Below, one piece after another: positions 16,876 through 56,248 of a stretch of DNA of 64,000 bases (position 1 is the stretch's first letter; every line of letters begins with the position of its first letter). The notes beneath the pieces were generated by a model. The model saw nothing but the letters and a program-made list of their open reading frames with translations, was not told the origin of the DNA and made no database searches. This DNA comes from Minisyncoccota bacterium (GTDB lineage: Bacteria; Patescibacteriota; Minisyncoccia; Phycocordibacterales; UBA9973): positions 81,973 to 145,972 of the forward strand of contig JBAZSZ010000001.1 in NCBI GenBank assembly GCA_041662205.1, written 5' to 3'. A program made the position numbers and the translations under genes.

Positions 16876-19800
16876 ATGAAATACTTTAAATCAATAATCA
16901 AAGCGGGAATGTTCATAGCTGTGCTGACATTCTTTGTGGGAATAGGTGCTCAAGCAGCTTCTGCCGCCACCGTCACACGTAGCTTCTCCACTCTCACGCC
17001 AGCAGCAGGAACATCTTTAACAGTTTCTCTGGCTGTAGCAATGAATCCTGCAGACATTCTAACATTGATTGAAGAAACAGCTCCTGTGGGCTGGGTCATC
17101 ACAAATCCTGGAACAGGAACAGTAGGAGCAGACGGTATTTTGAGACTGAATGTAGCTGCAACCGGAACAGAGCAATATACAATCTCTGTACCAGCTTCAG
17201 CATCAGGAATAAATAATTTCTCAGGAGTATTTGCCACATTAGCAAACCCAGTATCCTCTCCAATAACAGGAAGCACATCGGTAACGGTAGCACCTGCTCC
17301 GGTAGTTGACATAACTCCACCTACAATCAACTTACTCGGAACTTCTCCAATAGATGTAACCCAAAACACAACCTACACTGATGCAGGAGCTACTGCTTCA
17401 GATAATGTTGACGGAAACATCACAGCCAACATTACAACAGTAAACCCTGTAAATACTGCAATTTTAGGAACATACACAGTCACTTACAATGTATCTGACG
17501 CAGCTGGAAATCCTGCAACTCAAGTAACAAGAACAGTTAATGTAGTAGCAGTAGTTGTTCCACCAGTAACCGCCACCGTCACACGTAGCTTCTCCACTCT
17601 CACGCCAGCAGCAGGAACATCTTTAACAGTTTCTCTGGCTGTAGCAATGAATCCTGCAGACATTCTAACATTGATTGAAGAAACAGCTCCTGTGGGCTGG
17701 GTCATCACAAATCCTGGAACAGGAACAGTAGGAGCAGACGGTATTTTGAGACTGAATGTAGCTGCAACCGGAACAGAGCAATATACAATCTCTGTACCAG
17801 CTTCAGCATCAGGAATAAATAATTTCTCAGGAGTATTTGCCACATTAGCAAACCCAGTATCCTCTCCAATAACAGGAAGCACATCGGTAACGGTAGCACC
17901 TGCTCCGGTAGTTCCAGTCCTCACCACCATCAACGTTACTTCCGTCACCCCATCCGTAGTAGTAGGCAATACTCAACAAATGACAGCAACTACTTTAGAT
18001 CAAAACGGAGCACCGATTGCAGCAACTGTAACTTGGTCTAGTTCAAATACAGCAGTTGGCACTATTGATGTTACTACCGGAATGTTTACCGCGGTTTCTG
18101 CTGGAACTACAACTGTAATGGCAATGAACGGAGCAGTTATGGGAACAACTTTGGTAACAGTAACCGCAACACCTGTAACGTTTACAATAAATGTAACTTC
18201 CGGAGCAAATGGTACCATTACACCAACAGGTACAGCAGGAGTAGTTACTTTAAATTCTGGAGCGAACCAAACATTTACCATCACACCAAATGCAGGATTT
18301 AATATTCAGGATGTTTTAGTTGATGGATCTTCAGTTGGAGCTGTTGCTACTTTCACATTTACAAACGTAACAGCTAACCATACTATTTCAGCTAGTTTCG
18401 CATCAATTCCGGTAGGTTCATTCACGATAACTTCTTCTGCAGGAATAAATGGTAACATAGCTCCTCTTGGCGCCCTAAGTTTTGCCGGAGGCACCAATGC
18501 AACATACACAATTTCTCCAAGTGCAGGTTTTCAAGTATTAGATGTTTTAGTTGATGGATTTTCAGTTGGAGCCGTCACTACTTTCACCTTCACAAATATC
18601 ACTGCTAACCATACAATCGCTGCCAGCTTTATTGCAACTCCAGTCCTCACAACTATCACCGTTACACCATCAGCACCATCAATACAGGCTGGAACTACCC
18701 AACAATTTACCGCAGTTGCTAAGGATCAAAATGGAATTGCCTTAGTCACTCAACCGGTTTTCACATGGACATCAGGAAATAATATAGTTACCACCATAGA
18801 TGCATCAGGCCTTGCTCAGGGCATCGTCGCAGGTGGACCAGTTCTCATTACTGCTACCTCTGGAGCAGTTTCTGGTACAGCTACCTTAACAGTTACAGCA
18901 GTTCCAGTTTTGACTTCGGTCACAGTAGCTCCACCTACACCATCAATTATAGTTGGAGCAACTCAGCAACTAACAGCAAATCCTTTAGATCAAAATGGAA
19001 TTGCCTTTAACGGTGCTGCAATAGCCTGGTCTTCAAGTGATTCTACAATTGCCACAGTTGATAATAACGGCTTAGTAACAGGTGTCGCAGTTGGAACAAC
19101 AACAATCACAGCAACAGCGACTTCAGGAGCTATTACTGTAACAGGAACCGCGACAATCACAATAACCGCTAATCCAGTAACTCCTGTCCTCACTACCATC
19201 AACGTTACTCCCGTCACCCCATCCGTAGTAGTAGGAAATACTCAACAAATGACAGCAACTACTTTAGATCAAAACGGAGCACCGATTGCAGCAACTGTAA
19301 CTTGGTCTAGTTCAAATACAGCAGTTGGCACTATTGATGTTACTACCGGAATGTTTACCGCGGTCGCAGTAGGCACTACCACAATTACTGCTACGAGTGG
19401 CGCGGTGACAGGAACAACTTTAGTAACAGTAACTCCTGCTCCTGTCCTCACTACCATCAACGTTACTCCCGTCACCCCATCCGTAGTAGTAGGCAATACT
19501 CAACAAATGACAGCAACTACTTTAGATCAAAACGGAGCACCGATTGCAGCAACTGTAACTTGGTCTAGTTCAAATACAGCAGTTGGCACTATTGATGTTA
19601 CTACCGGAATGTTTACCGCGGTCGCAGTAGGCACTACCACAATTACTGCTACGAGTGGCGCGGTGACAGGAACAACTTTGGTGACGGTGACAGCGGTGCC
19701 TCAATCTAGTGGAGGTGGTGGTAGTTTTATAAGACCCATTATTGTTGGTCAAGTATTAGGTGCTTTCACGGGACCAATTGCAGGATGTGGCAATAGAACA

Positions 19801-20175
19801 ACTGGATTTAGTGTAACTTCTGGTCAGTCTTGTGTTGGAAACACTGGATCAGAGGGTCAAATTCTCGGATGTGGCAATAGAACAACTGGATTTAGTATAA
19901 CTACTGGTCAATCTTGTATTGGAAATACTGGAGCAGATGAACAAGTGCTCGGTGCTGAAAAATTTATTTTCACACTATTCCTAAAGCAAGGTTCAAAAGG
20001 AGATGAAGTTATGGAGCTTCAGAAATTCTTAAACACTACTAAATATGGTCCATTAGTAATTGATGGAAAATTTGGGAAAAAGACTAAAGAAGCTGTTCTT
20101 AAATTCCAAATAGCAAACGGGCTAAAAGGGGATGGAATCGTAGGACCTCTAACCCGCGCAGTTCTCAATCAATAA
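16876..20175 (+). CDS. Cell-surface protein with a duplicated 114-aa domain, a HYR/DUF5011-like Ig domain, at least five Big2 repeats, a Cys repeat pair and a C-terminal peptidoglycan-binding domain
   Basis: A signal peptide is present. DITPPTINLLGTSPIDV...NVDGNITANITTV...TYNVSDAAGNP is the Ig-like domain. VGNTQQMTATTLDQNGAPIAATVTWSSSNTAVGTIDVTTGMFTAV recurs as the Big2 repeat. The C-terminus GSKGDEVMELQKFLN...IDGKFGKKTKEAVLKFQ is PG_binding_1-like. Confidence 0.7.
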   Translation: MKYFKSIIKAGMFIAVLTFFVGIGAQAASAATVTRSFSTLTPAAGTSLTVSLAVAMNPADILTLIEETAPVGWVITNPGTGTVGADGILRLNVAATGTEQYTISVPASASGINNFSGVFATLANPVSSPITGSTSVTVAPAPVVDITPPTINLLGTSPIDVTQNTTYTDAGATASDNVDGNITANITTVNPVNTAILGTYTVTYNVSDAAGNPATQVTRTVNVVAVVVPPVTATVTRSFSTLTPAAGTSLTVSLAVAMNPADILTLIEETAPVGWVITNPGTGTVGADGILRLNVAATGTEQYTISVPASASGINNFSGVFATLANPVSSPITGSTSVTVAPAPVVPVLTTINVTSVTPSVVVGNTQQMTATTLDQNGAPIAATVTWSSSNTAVGTIDVTTGMFTAVSAGTTTVMAMNGAVMGTTLVTVTATPVTFTINVTSGANGTITPTGTAGVVTLNSGANQTFTITPNAGFNIQDVLVDGSSVGAVATFTFTNVTANHTISASFASIPVGSFTITSSAGINGNIAPLGALSFAGGTNATYTISPSAGFQVLDVLVDGFSVGAVTTFTFTNITANHTIAASFIATPVLTTITVTPSAPSIQAGTTQQFTAVAKDQNGIALVTQPVFTWTSGNNIVTTIDASGLAQGIVAGGPVLITATSGAVSGTATLTVTAVPVLTSVTVAPPTPSIIVGATQQLTANPLDQNGIAFNGAAIAWSSSDSTIATVDNNGLVTGVAVGTTTITATATSGAITVTGTATITITANPVTPVLTTINVTPVTPSVVVGNTQQMTATTLDQNGAPIAATVTWSSSNTAVGTIDVTTGMFTAVAVGTTTITATSGAVTGTTLVTVTPAPVLTTINVTPVTPSVVVGNTQQMTATTLDQNGAPIAATVTWSSSNTAVGTIDVTTGMFTAVAVGTTTITATSGAVTGTTLVTVTAVPQSSGGGGSFIRPIIVGQVLGAFTGPIAGCGNRTTGFSVTSGQSCVGNTGSEGQILGCGNRTTGFSITTGQSCIGNTGADEQVLGAEKFIFTLFLKQGSKGDEVMELQKFLNTTKYGPLVIDGKFGKKTKEAVLKFQIANGLKGDGIVGPLTRAVLNQ
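16964..17913. repeat. Two apparently identical 344-bp direct repeats (16964-17307 and 17570-17913), 606 bp apart, inside the surface-protein gene
   Basis: Both copies start at ccgccaccgtcacacgtagcttctcc and end at cacctgctccggtagtt. The protein segments ATVTRSF...APAPVV are identical. The minus-strand ORFs 16950..17369 and 17520..17969 translate identically. Confidence 0.85.
19183..19698. repeat. Tandem near-identical 258-bp (86-aa Big2) repeats, with a more diverged copy at ~17914-18100
   Basis: cctgtcctcactaccatcaacgttactcccgtcaccccatccgtagtagtagg... recurs at 19183 and 19441. Confidence 0.8.
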
Positions 20176-20203
20176 GTAAATTATCAGCTTCTTTAAGCTA
20201 AAC

Positions 20204-20240
20204 AAAAAAACCGGATTAGTCCTCCGGTTTTTTTGTTTTT
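20204..20240 (+). terminator. Rho-independent terminator after the surface-protein gene
   Basis: The sequence is aaaaaaaccgga-ttagtcc-tccggttttttt. Confidence 0.6.
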
Positions 20241-20288
20241 TTCTTTGTTTTCTGCTAATATAAAAAAAGTTCTTTGAAGAAAATAAAT

Positions 20289-20602
20289 TCCGGGGTAGCT
20301 CAGCGGTAGAGCGGTCGCCTGTGTCAGCATTACGCAGCTTCCTAAGAAAACTTAGGTTGAAAAACAAGGTGAATTCGGGGAAGCCCTTATGGGGTAATCC
20401 CGAGCCAAGCCTCAATATAATATTGAGGAAGGTGTAGAGACTATCCATTTATTGGAGTACATCGGCAAATCGTCGGTGGAAGCGCCTTGCTCCTAAGTTC
20501 TTAAAATCATTTTAAGAATATGGAGATGATATAGTCCACACTTCTAGTAATAGGAGACAAAGTGTAAGCGATTGGTCGTAGGTTCGATCCCTACCCCCGG
20601 AG
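20289..20602 (+). tRNA. tRNA-Asn (anticodon GTT), interrupted. Exon 1 is 20289-20322 (positions 1-35), exon 2 is 20565-20602 (positions 36-73) and the intron is 20323-20564.
   Basis: The exons read TCCGGGGTAGCTCAGCGGTAGAGCGGTCGCCTGT|TAAGCGATTGGTCGTAGGTTCGATCCCTACCCCCGGAG. The acceptor is UCCGGGG/CCCCGGA with U1-A72 and G73. The anticodon loop CUGUUAA matches bacterial tRNA-Asn. Confidence 0.8.
20323..20564 (+). ncRNA. Group I self-splicing intron (242 nt) in the tRNA-Asn anticodon loop, between U35 and U36
   Basis: P1 forms between exon CUGU plus intron GU and the internal guide ACGCAG, placing a U:G wobble at the 5' splice site. The intron ends in G (omega G). The candidate P7 strands are AGACUA and UAGUC. 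Hairpins at cctaagAAAActtagg, cctcaataTAAtattgagg and ttcttaaaATCAttttaagaa fit P2, P6 and P9. Confidence 0.7.
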
Positions 20603-38015: not shown

Positions 38016-38606
38016 TTATTCTGCTTGTTTATAATTCCCTGGTAGTAAGTCTATTTTATTTAGTGGCAATAATCGTAAAAATGCTTTTCCTGTAAATAGT
38101 TCTCTTTTTACTGGTCCCCAAGCTCTCGAATCAGAGCTTGCGCTTCTATTGTCACCCATCACAAAATATTCATCACTTTTTAACACTATATGCTCTTCGT
38201 TGTTGGAAATATTTTTTACGAAAGGCTGATCCAATTTGAAAGATTCTGGATGTTCGTTATTTGTGATAGTTACATCATTTCCTTTTATGTCTACTGTTTC
38301 ATTTGGCAAACCTATGACTCTCTTAATAAAAAATTTTGTGGTGTCACCAGGATATCGAAAAACTACTACGTCATCTCTTTTTGGATTACTTAATTCATAA
38401 GATATTTTATCTATTATTAAATAATCTCCGTTTGTAAATGTCGGAATCATAGAACCTCCTGAGACTATAAATGGCTCAGCGACAAAAGCCCTAATGGGAA
38501 CGACTATAATTAATGCAATAAAGGCAAAACGTAAAAGCTCCTTAAACGATTGCCATTTAGTTTTTTTCTCCTCAGTTTCTTTTTGATCCATTATTTGTTC
38601 TTTCAT
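38016..38606 (-). CDS. lepB: Signal peptidase I
   Basis: GGSMIPTF (Ser box) and VMGDNRSASSDSRAWG are present. Confidence 0.85.
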   Translation of the reverse strand: MKEQIMDQKETEEKKTKWQSFKELLRFAFIALIIVVPIRAFVAEPFIVSGGSMIPTFTNGDYLIIDKISYELSNPKRDDVVVFRYPGDTTKFFIKRVIGLPNETVDIKGNDVTITNNEHPESFKLDQPFVKNISNNEEHIVLKSDEYFVMGDNRSASSDSRAWGPVKRELFTGKAFLRLLPLNKIDLLPGNYKQAE

Positions 38607-38669
38607 TGTTATAATATAACATAAAAAATCCTTGACATGTTGGTAAAATTTGTTGGGTAATATGTTTTT

Positions 38670-38715
38670 CCCCTACACCAGGAGAAGGGGAATTCCCCTT
38701 CTCCTGGTGTAGGGG
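38670..38715. repeat. 46-bp GC-rich perfect palindrome: cccctacaccaggagaaggggaa|ttccccttctcctggtgtagggg
   Basis: It lies in the divergent lepB/pth intergenic region. Both arms are perfect and the centre is GGGGAATTCCCC. A second element of related type lies at 53310-53355. Confidence 0.85.
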
Positions 38716-38727
38716 ATATGATATTAT

Positions 38728-39261
38728 GTGTTTATGAAATTAGTTGTTGGTTTAGGAAATCCAGGCAAAGAATATGAAAATACTAGGCACAATACTGGGC
38801 GCATTTTGATTAATCTTATTGAGAAAAAATTAACAGACAGTAAGATAAAATTTCTTACACCAGATACTTTTATGAATAATTCTGGAAAAGCTGTCGTTTC
38901 TTTGATAAAAAGTAAAAAAGATTTAAAAGACTTAGTAGTAATTTATGATGATATTGATTTACCACTTGGGAAAATTAAAATTTCTTTTAACCGTTCTTCT
39001 GGTGGACATAATGGTCTCGAATCTGTTATTAAGAAATTAAAATCACAAGAATTTATAAGAATCAGAGTTGGTATTTCGGGATCGACTCCAAAGGGTGTAG
39101 TAAAAAAACCAAAAGGAGAGAAGGCTGTTTTAAATTTTCTACTTGGTGAATTTAAAAAGCCAGAACTGGAAATAATCAAAAAGCTTTCCAAAAAAGTCGC
39201 CGAAGCAGTAGAAATGATTTTCACCGAAAGCAAAGAAAAAGCGATGTCAATTTATAATTAA
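38728..39261 (+). CDS. pth: Peptidyl-tRNA hydrolase
   Basis: LVVGLGNPGKEYENTRHNTG is present. Confidence 0.85.
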   Translation: MFMKLVVGLGNPGKEYENTRHNTGRILINLIEKKLTDSKIKFLTPDTFMNNSGKAVVSLIKSKKDLKDLVVIYDDIDLPLGKIKISFNRSSGGHNGLESVIKKLKSQEFIRIRVGISGSTPKGVVKKPKGEKAVLNFLLGEFKKPELEIIKKLSKKVAEAVEMIFTESKEKAMSIYN

Positions 39262-51478: not shown

Positions 51479-53308
51479 ATGGATTTAAAACACATTCGAA
51501 ATTTTAGTATCATCGCTCACATTGACCACGGCAAAAGTACTTTGGCTGATAGAATGTTGGAGATCACACATACGATAGAAACACGTAAAATGCGGGATCA
51601 GGTTTTAGATTCTATGGATCTTGAGCGTGAAAGAGGAATTACTATCAAAATGCAACCAGTTCGCATGGAGTATGAGCTGGAAGGTCAAAAATACATTTTA
51701 AACCTTATCGACACTCCAGGCCACATTGATTTTTCCTATGAAGTATCCCGAGCCTTGAAGGCTGTGGAGGGATCAATCTTGCTCGTCGACTCGACTCAAG
51801 GAGTACAAGCGCAAACACTCACCACGCTCGCTATGGCTCGCGACAGCGGACTCAAGCTTATCCCTGTACTTTCTAAAATTGATTCACCACTATCTAGAGT
51901 TTCCGAGGTGAAAGAGGAAGTAGTGGAGCTTTTGAATTGTGACCCAGATGAGATTTTATTAGTTTCCGGACGCACTGGTGCAGGAGTACCCGAGCTTTTA
52001 CAAGAAGTTATCAAGCGAATCCCAGAACCAAAAGAAACTATTCTGTTTGGACATCCGGACTCTGGACGCGGGGCATCTGAAATAGTTCGTGCATTAGTTT
52101 TTGATTTTAAATATTCAAATCATCGAGGGGTGATAGTTTTTGTGCGAATTTTTGATGGAAAAGTTGCAAAGGGTGACAGCCTAATGTTTGCAGTTTCCGG
52201 TGAGAAATTTACTGCTCTTGAAGTTGGAACTTTTTCTCCAGAGGAAACCTCTCGTGATTTTCTTTCTTCTGGAGATACGGGTTATATTGTTACTGGTATA
52301 AAGAAGCCCGGCATAGCCTCCGTTGGGGATACTATTACTATGTCTAAAAATCCTCTGTTGGCCTTCGAGGGCTATATGCAACCCTTACCTGTAGTGTGGG
52401 CGAGCGTTTTTCCAGAAGATGCAGATGATTTTGCGGAATTAAAACTTGCTTTAGGGAAATTAAAACTTTCTGATTCAGCATTTTCATATGAAGAAGAATC
52501 TTCTGGCTCTTTAGGCCGTGGATTTAGATGTGGTTTTTTAGGGATGCTCCATTTGGAAATAATTACTGAAAGACTCAAAAGAGAATTTAATTTAGAACTT
52601 GTCGTTACAACCCCATCTATTACTTATGAAGTAACTAATAAGCAAGGTAAAAAAGAAAAAATATATTCTCCTTATTTTTTTCCAGATGATGGAAATATTG
52701 AAGATGTGCAAGAGCCTTGGGTGGATATAAAAATAATTAGTCCTTCTCCATACATTGGAGCCATTATGCAACTTTTATTTGAGCACGAAGCAGAGGTAGG
52801 GGAGACGGATAATTTTGGAGATAATAGGTCGTCAATCAGTGTTAAAATGCCTTTGCGTGAACTGATGCGTAATTTTTTTGATGAATTGAAAAGTGCTTCC
52901 TCAGGTTATGCTTCAATTTCTTATAAATTAAATGAAAACAGGAGAGCTGATGTGACTAGATTAGATATTTTAGTAGCAGATGAAATAGTTCCGGCCTTTT
53001 CTAGGGTTGTTTCTAAAAAGAGGGCTGAGATTGAGGCGGAAAATGCAGTTTTGAAATTAGAAGAGTTGCTACCAAGACAGATGTTCACTTTGAAAATTCA
53101 AGGTAAGGCATTAGGGCGCATTATTTCTTCTCGCACACTTTCTGGTATGAAAAAAGATGTAACTCAACATATGTATGGAGGAGATATCACTCGAAAAATG
53201 AAACTTCGAGAAAAACAAAAGAAAGGTAAAAAGAAAATGAAGGAAAGAGGACGAGTAAATATTCCTCAGGATGTATTTTTGAAGATGATGCGATCCGGAG
53301 AAAAATAA
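51479..53308 (+). CDS. lepA: Translation elongation factor 4
   Basis: IRNFSIIAHIDHGKSTLADR is present. The length is 609 aa. Confidence 0.9.
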   Translation: MDLKHIRNFSIIAHIDHGKSTLADRMLEITHTIETRKMRDQVLDSMDLERERGITIKMQPVRMEYELEGQKYILNLIDTPGHIDFSYEVSRALKAVEGSILLVDSTQGVQAQTLTTLAMARDSGLKLIPVLSKIDSPLSRVSEVKEEVVELLNCDPDEILLVSGRTGAGVPELLQEVIKRIPEPKETILFGHPDSGRGASEIVRALVFDFKYSNHRGVIVFVRIFDGKVAKGDSLMFAVSGEKFTALEVGTFSPEETSRDFLSSGDTGYIVTGIKKPGIASVGDTITMSKNPLLAFEGYMQPLPVVWASVFPEDADDFAELKLALGKLKLSDSAFSYEEESSGSLGRGFRCGFLGMLHLEIITERLKREFNLELVVTTPSITYEVTNKQGKKEKIYSPYFFPDDGNIEDVQEPWVDIKIISPSPYIGAIMQLLFEHEAEVGETDNFGDNRSSISVKMPLRELMRNFFDELKSASSGYASISYKLNENRRADVTRLDILVADEIVPAFSRVVSKKRAEIEAENAVLKLEELLPRQMFTLKIQGKALGRIISSRTLSGMKKDVTQHMYGGDITRKMKLREKQKKGKKKMKERGRVNIPQDVFLKMMRSGEK

Positions 53309-53309
53309 A

Positions 53310-53355
53310 CCCCCACCCCAGGGATAGGGGAATTCCCCTATCCCTGGGGTGGGGG
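53310..53355. repeat. 46-bp GC-rich perfect palindrome: cccccaccccagggataggggaa|ttcccctatccctggggtggggg
   Basis: It lies immediately after the lepA stop. Eighteen of 23 positions per arm match the element at 38670, with matching changes in the opposite arm. Confidence 0.85.
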
Positions 53356-53489
53356 GAAGAATTTATCTAAAAATTGGCGAGTAGAGCAATATCATACTGA
53401 TTATAATGAGGATGCTCACGACTGCCCAAGCTATTTGTATTTTCTTTTGATGTTTTTTGTTGAAAAGCATATACTGAATATATCATATT

Positions 53490-53864
53490 ATGAGAAATTT
53501 TCAAGAAAAAAGAGGTTGGAGAAATATAGTCCAATCAAAACCGTTTTTGATACTTTTTGGTATTGTGATACTATTTTTTTCTTGGAATGTTTTTACTTTT
53601 TGGAATAAAATGCAAGAAACGGTAAAAAATAAAAAAATAGTTGAAGATAAAATTGCTTTATTAGAAAAACAAAAAGGAGAAATATCTTCTGAAATAAATA
53701 GTTTAAATACAATAGAAGGTAAAGAGAAGTTTTTTCGTGAAAATTTAGGTTTAGTAAAGGAAGGAGAAGGTGTGACCGTAGTAGTTGAAGATAAAAACCC
53801 ACCCATTACTTCAAAACCAATATCTTCAGGATTTTGGTCCTTTTTTACAAATTTGTTTAAATAA
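53490..53864 (+). CDS. FtsB/DivIC-like septum formation initiator
   Basis: A single N-terminal TM segment and a coiled coil are present. EKFFRENLGLVKEGEGVTVV is also present. Confidence 0.5.
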   Translation: MRNFQEKRGWRNIVQSKPFLILFGIVILFFSWNVFTFWNKMQETVKNKKIVEDKIALLEKQKGEISSEINSLNTIEGKEKFFRENLGLVKEGEGVTVVVEDKNPPITSKPISSGFWSFFTNLFK

Positions 53865-54898: not shown

Positions 54899-56248
54899 AT
54901 GACTAATCATTGGATTAAAAATTTTGATCAGTTAGCAATGACTGAAAATAGGAAAAATGCGCTAGAGATAATGGAAGCTGGTCTTGATGCTATCAATACA
55001 AGGAAAGTGATAAAAAACAAAATAAAACTTGAAAATAATATTTTAACTGTAAATGGTGAGAATTTTGATTTAAATAAATTCAAAAATATAAAAATTGTTG
55101 GTTTCGGTAAATCCTCTTGCGATGGGGCTCTGGCATTAGAAGAAATTTTAGGATCTAGGATAAAAGAAGGAGCAGTTATAGGGCTTTGCAAAGTGAACAC
55201 TCTGCATATCGAGACTTTTGTGGGGACACATCCTAGGCCGAGTGAGGTAAATGTTTCTGCTGGAAAAAAAATATATGAAATAATAAAAGATTCGAATGTT
55301 GATGATTTGATCATTGTCCTTGTTTCTGGCGGCGGTTCAGCTCTTCTTTGTTATCCTGAGAGTGAATATACAGAAGGGGCAAAGCTTTATGATTCATTTT
55401 TAGAATGCGGGAAAACAATAAAAGAGATGAACACAATCAGAAAGCATTTATCTCTTTTAAAGGGTGGTGGTTTAGCAAAGTTAGCTTATCCTGCGACAGT
55501 TATCGGTCTTATCTTTTCTGATGTTCCTGGGGATGATTTTAGTGATGTGGCTTCGGGGGCAACCTATAAAGATGAAACTACCATAGAGGATGTAAAAAAA
55601 ATTATTAACGAAAATAATTTAGGAGAATTTATTTTAATTGAAACTCCAAAAGAAGATAAATATTTTGAGAAAGTTCATAATTTTGTTTTAGTTTCAAATA
55701 AAACTGCCGTGGAAGCCATGGCTAAAGCTGCGCAAGAATTTAATTTTAAAACTAATATTATTTCAACTAATTTGTATGATGAAGATGAAAAAGCGATAAA
55801 AAAAATATTTTCCAATCAAGACAAAACCAATGAAGGGTTTTCTCAGGTCCTCGGTTTTCAGGGTCCCTATCCCGGCCAGACCATTCAAAAACCCTTCATT
55901 GGTTTTGTCCAACTTGCTGCTGGCGAGCCGAGTATCAAAATTTCTTCTTGTGGAGGCAAAGGAGGCAGGAATCTACATATGGGATTGGAAGTTATTAAAA
56001 TGAAAACGGTGAACGATGACTCTGTTTTTATCTCTTTTGCGAGTGATGGTATGGACAATAGCGATGTCGCTGGAGCCATAGTGGATGTAGAAACCATTAA
56101 AAAAGCTGAAAAGCTAGGTTTAAATGTTGATGATTATTTAAAAAGGTTTGATTCTTATGATTTTTTCCAAAAAACTGGTGATATGATTATTACTGGTCCG
56201 ACAGGGGCGAATGTTTCTGATTTAATGATTTTGTTAAATAAAAAATGA
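54899..56248 (+). CDS. Glycerate 2-kinase (MOFRL family)
   Basis: DDLIIVLVSGGGSALL is present, with a C-terminal MOFRL-like region. Confidence 0.7.
   Translation: MTNHWIKNFDQLAMTENRKNALEIMEAGLDAINTRKVIKNKIKLENNILTVNGENFDLNKFKNIKIVGFGKSSCDGALALEEILGSRIKEGAVIGLCKVNTLHIETFVGTHPRPSEVNVSAGKKIYEIIKDSNVDDLIIVLVSGGGSALLCYPESEYTEGAKLYDSFLECGKTIKEMNTIRKHLSLLKGGGLAKLAYPATVIGLIFSDVPGDDFSDVASGATYKDETTIEDVKKIINENNLGEFILIETPKEDKYFEKVHNFVLVSNKTAVEAMAKAAQEFNFKTNIISTNLYDEDEKAIKKIFSNQDKTNEGFSQVLGFQGPYPGQTIQKPFIGFVQLAAGEPSIKISSCGGKGGRNLHMGLEVIKMKTVNDDSVFISFASDGMDNSDVAGAIVDVETIKKAEKLGLNVDDYLKRFDSYDFFQKTGDMIITGPTGANVSDLMILLNKK

Follow-up and report, generated by a model that had tools for sequence, protein, structure and literature searches.

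Two GC-rich perfect palindromes, E1 and E2, lying in a 64,000-nucleotide stretch of bacterial DNA (the window, by which we mean the whole stretch analysed), are probably copies of a dispersed, insertion-polymorphic palindrome family that is confined to AT-rich Paceibacterota/Nomurabacteria and behaves like REP/REPIN elements, Rickettsia palindromic elements (RPEs) and the GC clusters of yeast mitochondria. The family is previously undescribed, although of a known kind of small hairpin-forming repeat; a literature search returned no description of the family or its motif in bacteria, and matches to GGGGAATTCCCC were mostly NF-kB probe or primer sequences. The original prediction of a 46-bp perfect 23+23 palindrome was exact in both letters and symmetry: positions 38670-38715 read cccctacaccaggagaaggggaa followed directly by ttccccttctcctggtgtagggg, and pairing reaches 38669-38716, with one extra complementary base on each side (T...A). 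The related second element that it had placed at 53310-53355 was also found to be a perfect palindrome of the E1 family (Table 1). The arms of E1 and E2 differ at 5 of 23 positions, each change being mirrored in the opposite arm. E1 and E2 are the sole long GC-rich perfect palindromes of the window; GGGGAATTCCCC occurs exactly twice, once at the centre of each, and the seven matches to the arm pattern with three or fewer mismatches all fall within E1/E2 (0.19 expected from shuffles). Folded as RNA, E1 has a predicted energy of -53.9 kcal/mol (z = -9.4), equalled by 0 of 200 shuffles. The surroundings, claimed to be about 35% GC, measured 31.7% around E1 and roughly 32-38% over most of the window, and Pfam confirmed that E1 separates lepB on the minus strand from pth on the plus strand, as predicted.

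Table 1. Positions of the palindromes, their copies in related genomes, and neighbouring features.
Feature	Locus	Position	Strand	Remarks
E1	window	38670-38715	.	perfect 23+23 GC-rich palindrome, arm CCCCTACACCAGGAGAAGGGGAA
E2	window	53310-53355	.	perfect 23+23 palindrome, same family as E1, arm CCCCCACCCCAGGGATAGGGGAA
lepB (signal peptidase I)	window	38016-38606	-	Pfam signal peptidase S26; left neighbour of E1
pth (peptidyl-tRNA hydrolase)	window	38734-39261	+	Pfam; right neighbour of E1; ATG 38734, 18 nt past E1
lepA (EF4)	window	51479-53308	+	Pfam; E2 directly 3' of its stop
divIC/ftsB-like gene	window	53490-53864	+	Pfam (DivIC-like); downstream of E2
Promoter-like sequence	window	38632-38661	+	TTGACA 38632-38637, 18-nt spacer, GGTAAT 38656-38661; kept in relatives
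Extended -10-like sequence	window	38719-38727	+	TGATATTAT; 6 nt upstream of pth ATG
Family copy, lepB/pth spacer	window (E1), L048, L132			
Family copy, spacer from lepA stop to divIC	window (E2), L094			
Family copy, rpsJ/rplC spacer	L027, L119			
Family copy, rplD/rplW spacer	L122			
Family copy, rplN/rplX spacer	L028, L050			
Family copy, downstream of rpsR	L113			
Family copy, upstream of rpsP, tpiA and a dksA-like gene	L105, L110, L126			
Family copy, between folD and next gene	L118			decayed orthologue in L015
Family copy within lepA	L070			in frame; 51 nt: 50-nt palindrome plus one extra G in central G-run
Family copy within rsmH	L061			in frame; 48 nt; encodes SPEPGTGEFPCTWFRG
Family copy within ligA	L065, L137-L139			in frame; one arm mismatch; encodes SSHEPGTGEFPRTWFMGG
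Solo arm	L028	658-680		forms 3' end of rpmC
Y1 transposase	L129	5883-6551		
Y1 transposase	L137	10001-10699		
Y1 transposase	L140	10001-10714		
Y1 transposase	L142	10001-10693		
Y1 transposase	L144	10001-10717		
Second palindrome family	L129	9934-9980		upstream of pth
Second palindrome family	L144	12330-12352, 18138-18163, 20120-20144		other spacers
Second palindrome family	L137	14524-14548		in frame in ligA; encodes SPISLTRRGVGGEV

The range of the family was determined by two pattern scans. One genome from each of 185,579 species was scanned for CAGG-N2-6-GGGGAATTCCCC-N2-6-CCTG, and 87 stretches were returned. Full-length relatives, with arms of 23-25 nt that are perfect or nearly so, came only from Patescibacteria MAGs (perfect copies in L023, L027, L050, L061, L028, L048, L074 and L094; near-perfect copies in L015, L065 and L070), and the matches in other taxa were unrelated coding sequences or shorter unrelated hairpins. 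Metagenomes were scanned with one arm and the core only, CCC-N4-CCAGG-N4-GGGGAATTCCCC. Every match in contigs of 31-42% GC was a family member, the unconstrained arm being a perfect mirror in 13 copies and a near-perfect one in 4; matches in high-GC contigs showed no palindromy. Once duplicates were removed, about 22 distinct copies were obtained from public genomes and metagenomes, all in low-GC Patescibacteria (Paceibacterota/Nomurabacteria) contigs, and an nhmmer profile added one variant and one solo arm. E1 is thus far from unique, which answers the caution in the original prediction that a lone element might be a chance palindrome. The probability of one perfect 46-bp palindrome arising in 64 kb is ~1e-9, independent assemblies from NCBI, JGI and ENA place the same elements at identical loci, and some copies lie within intact reading frames. 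We therefore reject chance or an assembly artefact, whose likelihood is practically nil; nothing speaks for an artefact beyond the general tendency of assemblers to mishandle inverted repeats. A phage source received no support, since two pattern scans of viral contigs gave only short generic GGGGAATTCCCC-tipped terminator-like hairpins and a blastn search with E1 of 50,697 phage records gave no match.

Copy density is low. There are two copies in the 64-kb window and two in the 36-kb contig of H41-bin112, while H43-bin140 has four full-length copies and a solo arm on three short contigs (one further variant copy is on L112, a metagenome contig sampled at that site) and several 20-kb relatives have none. 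A separate repeat was also noted: in the Emcibacter MAG JAKIUQ01 (L033, L047, L051, L052, L060, L062, L067, L073, L078, L087, L093, L095 and L098), CACAGGGGATGGGGAATTCCCCATCCCCTGTG is found with the fixed flanks TTTACTCAAAAG and AAACAGAAACAG, some 15-45 nt from more than 10 contig ends, as a high-copy repeat that breaks the assembly. It is also present in other marine alphaproteobacterial MAGs.

Alignment of 21 copies, which are 46-54 bp long, gave the consensus (T)(T)CCC(C/T)-N4-CCAGG-N3-A-GGGG-AATT-CCCC-T-N3-CCTGG-N4-(G/A)GGG(A)(A), in which CC, CCAGG and AGGGGAATTCCCCT are blocks with little or no variation. Standard pairs make up 98.4% of cells. Double-sided changes were counted at 10 of 21 pairs (59 cells), a level that 0 of 500 shuffles and no slid control came near. 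Five cells are G-U and seven are other mismatches, so wobble is not favoured; because RNA tolerates wobble, this weakly suggests that the constraint acts on Watson–Crick symmetry – of a DNA hairpin, a cruciform or a copying process – rather than on RNA folding. The arms are quasi-symmetric in their own right (CCCCT-N3-CCWGG-N3-AGGGG), and TAC/GTA lies within the stem in 15-18 of the 21 copies, variably. A hairpin within the arm was considered and rejected: pairing of its CCCCT/AGGGG ends is possible, yet the N3 spacers neither pair nor co-vary.

The three blocks CCCC, CCAGG and GGGGAATTCCCC lie about 8-9 bp apart and are invariant across genera, as the contacts of a dimeric or tetrameric protein bound to duplex DNA might be, and E1 does sit in a divergent promoter region. 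An operator, one of the functions originally proposed, is nevertheless a very improbable reading. Duplex recognition does not require mirroring, yet 98% of the cells at non-conserved positions are mirrored, and this holds in nearly every copy. The copies show no preference for promoters, being found in operon spacers, past stop codons and in frame within genes, and the same genes in close relatives do without the site upstream.

The lepB/pth site was compared among relatives of the window. The window Pth is 100% identical to the protein of a 'Candidatus Paceibacterota' MAG, and homologues with 80-91% identity number in the hundreds, from MAGs of Paceibacterota, Nomurabacteria and Patescibacteria. 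A framework common to all relatives consists of TATAATATAAC beside lepB, TTGACA, 18 nt, (G/T)(G/A)TAAT, and a second TG-N-TAT(T/A)AT before the pth ATG; the first promoter-like element is conserved in the window, L048, L129, L130, L132 and L136. The content between the two promoter-like elements varies. L048 has a family copy that differs from E1 at three arm positions, all mirrored, and L132 one with an E2-type arm and the centre ATTT. In L129 an unrelated GC-rich palindrome takes the place of the family copy. The site is empty in L136 and L130/131, which have AT-rich sequence only, and in L127/128 and L133-135, where a 61-bp spacer contains a single promoter-like element that would yield a leaderless pth mRNA. 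Carriers of the element do not cluster by Pth identity, and the nearest relatives of the window (90-91%) are empty. This presence/absence polymorphism in a dispersed family supports the REP-like reading that had been offered among the alternatives for E1. Comparison of filled with empty sites at lepB/pth, ligA and lepA revealed no target-site duplication on both sides; the terminal 8-9 nt of the element are repeated on one side in some copies (L070, L065, L015b and L118).

Several further observations concern this region. The second palindrome family, CCTCACCC..CCCTCTCC-loop-GGAGAGGG..GGGTGAGG, is GC-rich and occurs in L129, L144 and L137 (Table 1); the LigA of L137 has three GC-rich in-frame inserts, none of which is present in L140. 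Pth homologues P0009, P0027, P0066, P0076, P0099 and P0104 are called at 195-216 aa. Their N-terminal extensions run through stop-free GC-rich palindromes (e.g. ...TPPTPGIGDFPYPWGGG...) and are a gene-calling artefact, one that can be used to find such inserts from protein databases; the extensions of P0076 and P0027, judged from their translations, suggest more unrelated inserts. In the window, pth (+) and dnaE (-) are convergent and overlap by 4 nt (39258-39261) without a terminator between them, so that read-through from dnaE would run antisense over pth towards E1 and lepB.

Copies within a genome resemble one another more than they resemble copies elsewhere. Mean arm differences are 2.6 within genomes and 4.6 between genomes (permutation p = 0.003), and the variable triplet is constant in each genome (GAT in H43-bin140, TTT in H41-bin112, TAC in PFRK01). 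Copies at orthologous sites in different genomes differ at 3-6 mirrored positions, and two copies, L015a and L121, are decayed. At the lepA/divIC site, E2 and the orthologous copy in L094 are identical at 46 of 46 positions, although third codon positions of lepA and divIC are just 57-60% identical between the two. This full identity points to purifying selection at the level of function. Neutral vertical decay could not yield such a pattern of copies, which calls for purifying selection on the perfect hairpin, replacement from genome-specific master copies, or both. The spacer between E2 and divIC (53356-53489) matches its L094 counterpart at 76% of positions, including long uninterrupted stretches; a conserved promoter or a small RNA missed by annotation may lie there.

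Most copies are intergenic, and many start 1-9 nt past a stop codon and end 5-26 nt before a co-oriented start codon. E2 itself begins 1 nt past the lepA stop; the other extragenic copies found 1-9 nt past a stop include L094, L028, L050, L027, L110, L113 and L122. Other copies lie in frame within lepA, rsmH and ligA, whose reading frames are intact (L070, L061 and L065/L137, respectively). In L070 the extra central G restores the frame, giving 17 codons, and 17 residues are accordingly added after VRME(Y/F) relative to the window LepA. The RsmH and LigA peptides appear as insertions in alignments to solved (PDB) structures, and the LigA of L140/L141, 80% identical, is without the insert. From these alignments, the in-frame copies are predicted to be translated as loop insertions, the peptide having the form xPxPGxGEFPxxW. 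RPEs are similarly palindromic repeats of a small AT-rich genome that lie in frame in unrelated housekeeping genes (PMC10969869). They are translated as surface-loop peptides, as is predicted of the present family, and like it they also have intergenic copies and no known transposase. The family shares with them the in-frame insertion into unrelated genes, with predicted translation as an extra peptide, seen as gaps against the window LepA, the PDB homologues and the L140 LigA. RPEs are, on the other hand, about 100-150 bp long, imperfect and restricted to Rickettsia, whereas the family is 46-54 bp long, perfect, mostly intergenic and found in Patescibacteria. The two are unrelated in sequence, and neither Rfam nor any other sequence match linked them.

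The positions of copies just past stop codons would also suit a host-selected RNA signal, in which a 21-23 bp hairpin acts as a terminator or insulator without a U-tract ('I-shaped'), a block to 3' exonucleases or an RNase III site. Such a signal would punctuate compact operons and shield lepB and pth from read-through, and its repetition would reflect reuse of a favoured structure. The extreme stability of the hairpin fits this reading, as does the complete conservation of E2 in L094 at near-saturation of synonymous sites; a perfect palindrome would also give the same hairpin from either transcribed strand, and different hairpin families at one pth-upstream position in different genomes are what functional convergence would give. 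We nevertheless regard it as doubtful. Close relatives have no hairpin at all at the pth site, copies are found in frame within lepA, rsmH and ligA, and G-U pairs are not preferred to other mismatches. Copies between co-oriented ribosomal-protein genes stop only 5-26 nt short of the following start codon, a place at which ending transcription would do harm. In Rfam, nothing at E1 or E2 reached the gathering threshold, and a permissive threshold gave only miRNA-precursor models far below it, i.e. noise.

Canonical intrinsic terminators are likewise GC-rich stem-loops directly 3' of genes, and GGGGAATTCCCC-tipped hairpins with T-runs exist in phages and other bacteria. The sequence downstream of E1, however, reads ATATGATA on the plus strand and AAAAACAT on the minus strand, with a U-tract on neither, and that downstream of E2 on the lepA strand reads GAAGAATT, again without a U-tract; the only T-run beside E2 is on the opposite strand, where none of the called genes is transcribed towards E2. 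With its 21-23 bp, the stem also greatly exceeds the usual length, and copies are found within ribosomal-protein (S10/spc) operons, in a 5' leader and in ORFs. A canonical terminator was rejected on these grounds, and the terminator or attenuator originally suggested for E1 finds no support. The intragenic copies alone cannot exclude termination by extragenic ones, because translating ribosomes suppress hairpin formation.

REP/REPIN elements of Enterobacteria and Pseudomonas, to which the family is alike in several respects, are short, GC-rich, hairpin-forming and mostly extragenic, often just past stop codons and within operons. They come in genome-specific types (compare the 2.6 and 4.6 arm differences above), form doublets that fold into one long hairpin, and occur as solo units. 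In two defining respects the family departs from them: REPs are imperfect palindromes with a tetranucleotide, and they have a cognate RAYT flanked by copies. The palindrome is instead perfect, without spacer or bulges, the 21-copy alignment contains no invariant GTAG-type tetranucleotide outside the stem, and no RAYT flanked by copies was found. Its in-frame genic copies and, in the contigs covered, its far lower copy number are further differences. REP/REPIN elements can secondarily stabilise mRNA.

A mobilising enzyme was sought in the window and in related genomes. No transposase for the family, nor a terminal inverted repeat distinct from the palindrome itself, was found at the loci compared, and the 64-kb window has no Y1 homologue. 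Relatives do encode a conserved Y1 (IS200/RAYT-like) transposase, which is common and syntenic in the clade and has 2,587 homologues at E ≤ 0.001, the closest of them annotated as Nomurabacteria/Paceibacterota. That of L129 scored 78.4 bits against the NCBIfam model REP_Tyr_transpos (cut-off 80). Each Y1 gene examined (L129, L137-L141, L142 and L144) is flanked by hairpins other than those of the E1/E2 family, so that among these genes a Y1/RAYT mobiliser of the family finds no support. In L137-L144 the gene has its own hairpin, TCGCAAGGAC-N-GTCCTTGCGA, on both sides (upstream and at the 3' end), of which L142 has the compensatory variant CTAGCAAGAAC-C-GTTCTTGCTAG, and in L129 it is bracketed by a different inverted repeat, GGGGTCAGGTACCTTT. 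The Y1 gene is often embedded in a type IV pilus cluster.

A true REP/REPIN system, in which each 23-nt arm is a REP, the 46-bp palindrome a REPIN doublet and the cognate RAYT encoded elsewhere in the genome, is accordingly unlikely. The quasi-symmetric arms, the single solo arm (L028), the genome-specific sequence types and the presence in the clade of Y1 transposases near the threshold of a RAYT model are consistent with it. Against it are the bracketing of every Y1 examined by hairpins of another kind, the window without a Y1 homologue, the missing tetranucleotide and the perfection of the palindromes.

Two other kinds of small repeat were compared with the family. Yeast mitochondrial GC clusters are dispersed GC-rich palindromes, about 30-50 bp long, of a genome that is otherwise very rich in AT. 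Strains differ in which clusters they carry, one such optional cluster lies in frame in var1, and dinucleotide duplications characteristically flank them. The family differs from them in being bacterial, in its sequence and in having no flanking dinucleotide duplications. MITEs (Correia, ERIC, RUP, BOX) are likewise small and dispersed, non-autonomous, inverted in symmetry and able to fuse with ORFs, but the family has no terminal inverted repeats around internal sequence, no target-site duplication and no known parent IS. The spacer-less perfect palindrome of 46-54 bp, the blocks invariant across genera, the lack of a known enzyme and of a target-site duplication, and the Patescibacteria host together set the family apart from REP/REPIN elements, RPEs and yeast GC clusters.

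For the dispersed palindrome family that we favour, we envisage that the element is propagated or replaced as DNA capable of hairpin or cruciform formation. Purifying selection on pairing might maintain the perfect symmetry, as might replacement from master copies specific to each genome, or the two together; hairpin-templated (template-switch) correction may mirror rare changes. E1 lies between the conserved promoter-like sequence, whose predicted transcription start is at the left edge of E1, and the pth start; if transcribed, it would place a hairpin of about 22 bp at the 5' end of the pth leader. The extended -10-like sequence may give a leaderless pth mRNA starting downstream of E1. Because relatives do without the element, it is probably either neutral in its local effect or a mild modulator (e.g. 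by protection of mRNA ends), and not a terminator.

Several observations sit less easily with a dispersed repeat. The density is low, as noted above, and the loci compared yielded no transposase, distinct terminal inverted repeat or target-site duplication. Copies recur at the same sites, and an unrelated hairpin family occupies the same pth-upstream site in L129, so that a hairpin could be functionally favoured there rather than selfishly inserted. The full identity of E2 and its L094 counterpart, and the bracketing of Y1 transposases in related genomes by a different hairpin, also count against it. It is conceivable, though we hold it to be rather unlikely, that the family is a hairpin replicator that maintains itself, or else a structural signal that has been domesticated, conserved throughout a class of CPR bacteria and served by a dedicated candidate hairpin/cruciform-specific enzyme. 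Much as in homing, such an enzyme would re-copy genome-specific masters into a constant set of AT-rich hot spots between genes. If true, this would account together for the perfect symmetry, the homogeneity within genomes and the 100% identity at orthologous sites despite synonymous saturation.

The small, streamlined genomes of CPR/Patescibacteria are regarded as repeat-poor. The family is conserved, GC-rich and perfectly symmetric, turns over at defined intergenic sites, and has in-frame copies that essential genes (EF4, DNA ligase and RsmH) have taken up; for these reasons it would represent selfish or semi-domesticated palindromic DNA that shapes even minimal genomes. It accounts for some loop insertions in CPR proteins and for spurious N-terminal ORF extensions in MAG annotation, such as the long Pth calls described above. 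It also provides a strain-typing marker and a way towards a hairpin-specific enzyme of an uncultivated phylum, and its mirrored substitutions form a clean natural data set on how a palindrome is kept, whether by selection, template-switch correction or copy replacement.

Other structured sequences were noted in the window. A group I intron was detected at 20252-20557 (+), with 67.3 bits for Rfam RF00028, whose gathering score is 50. It is situated in the spacer that follows a Big_2/PG_binding surface-protein gene (16876-20175), and no tRNA, rRNA or ORF that might host it was recognised. Between that gene and the intron is a bidirectional terminator-like hairpin (20200-20238). A perfect 22-nt inverted repeat, GACAAAACCAATGAAGGGTTTT and its reverse complement at 55820-55841 and 55888-55909, 46 nt apart, sits within a DUF4147/MOFRL (glycerate-kinase-like) gene (54899-56248).
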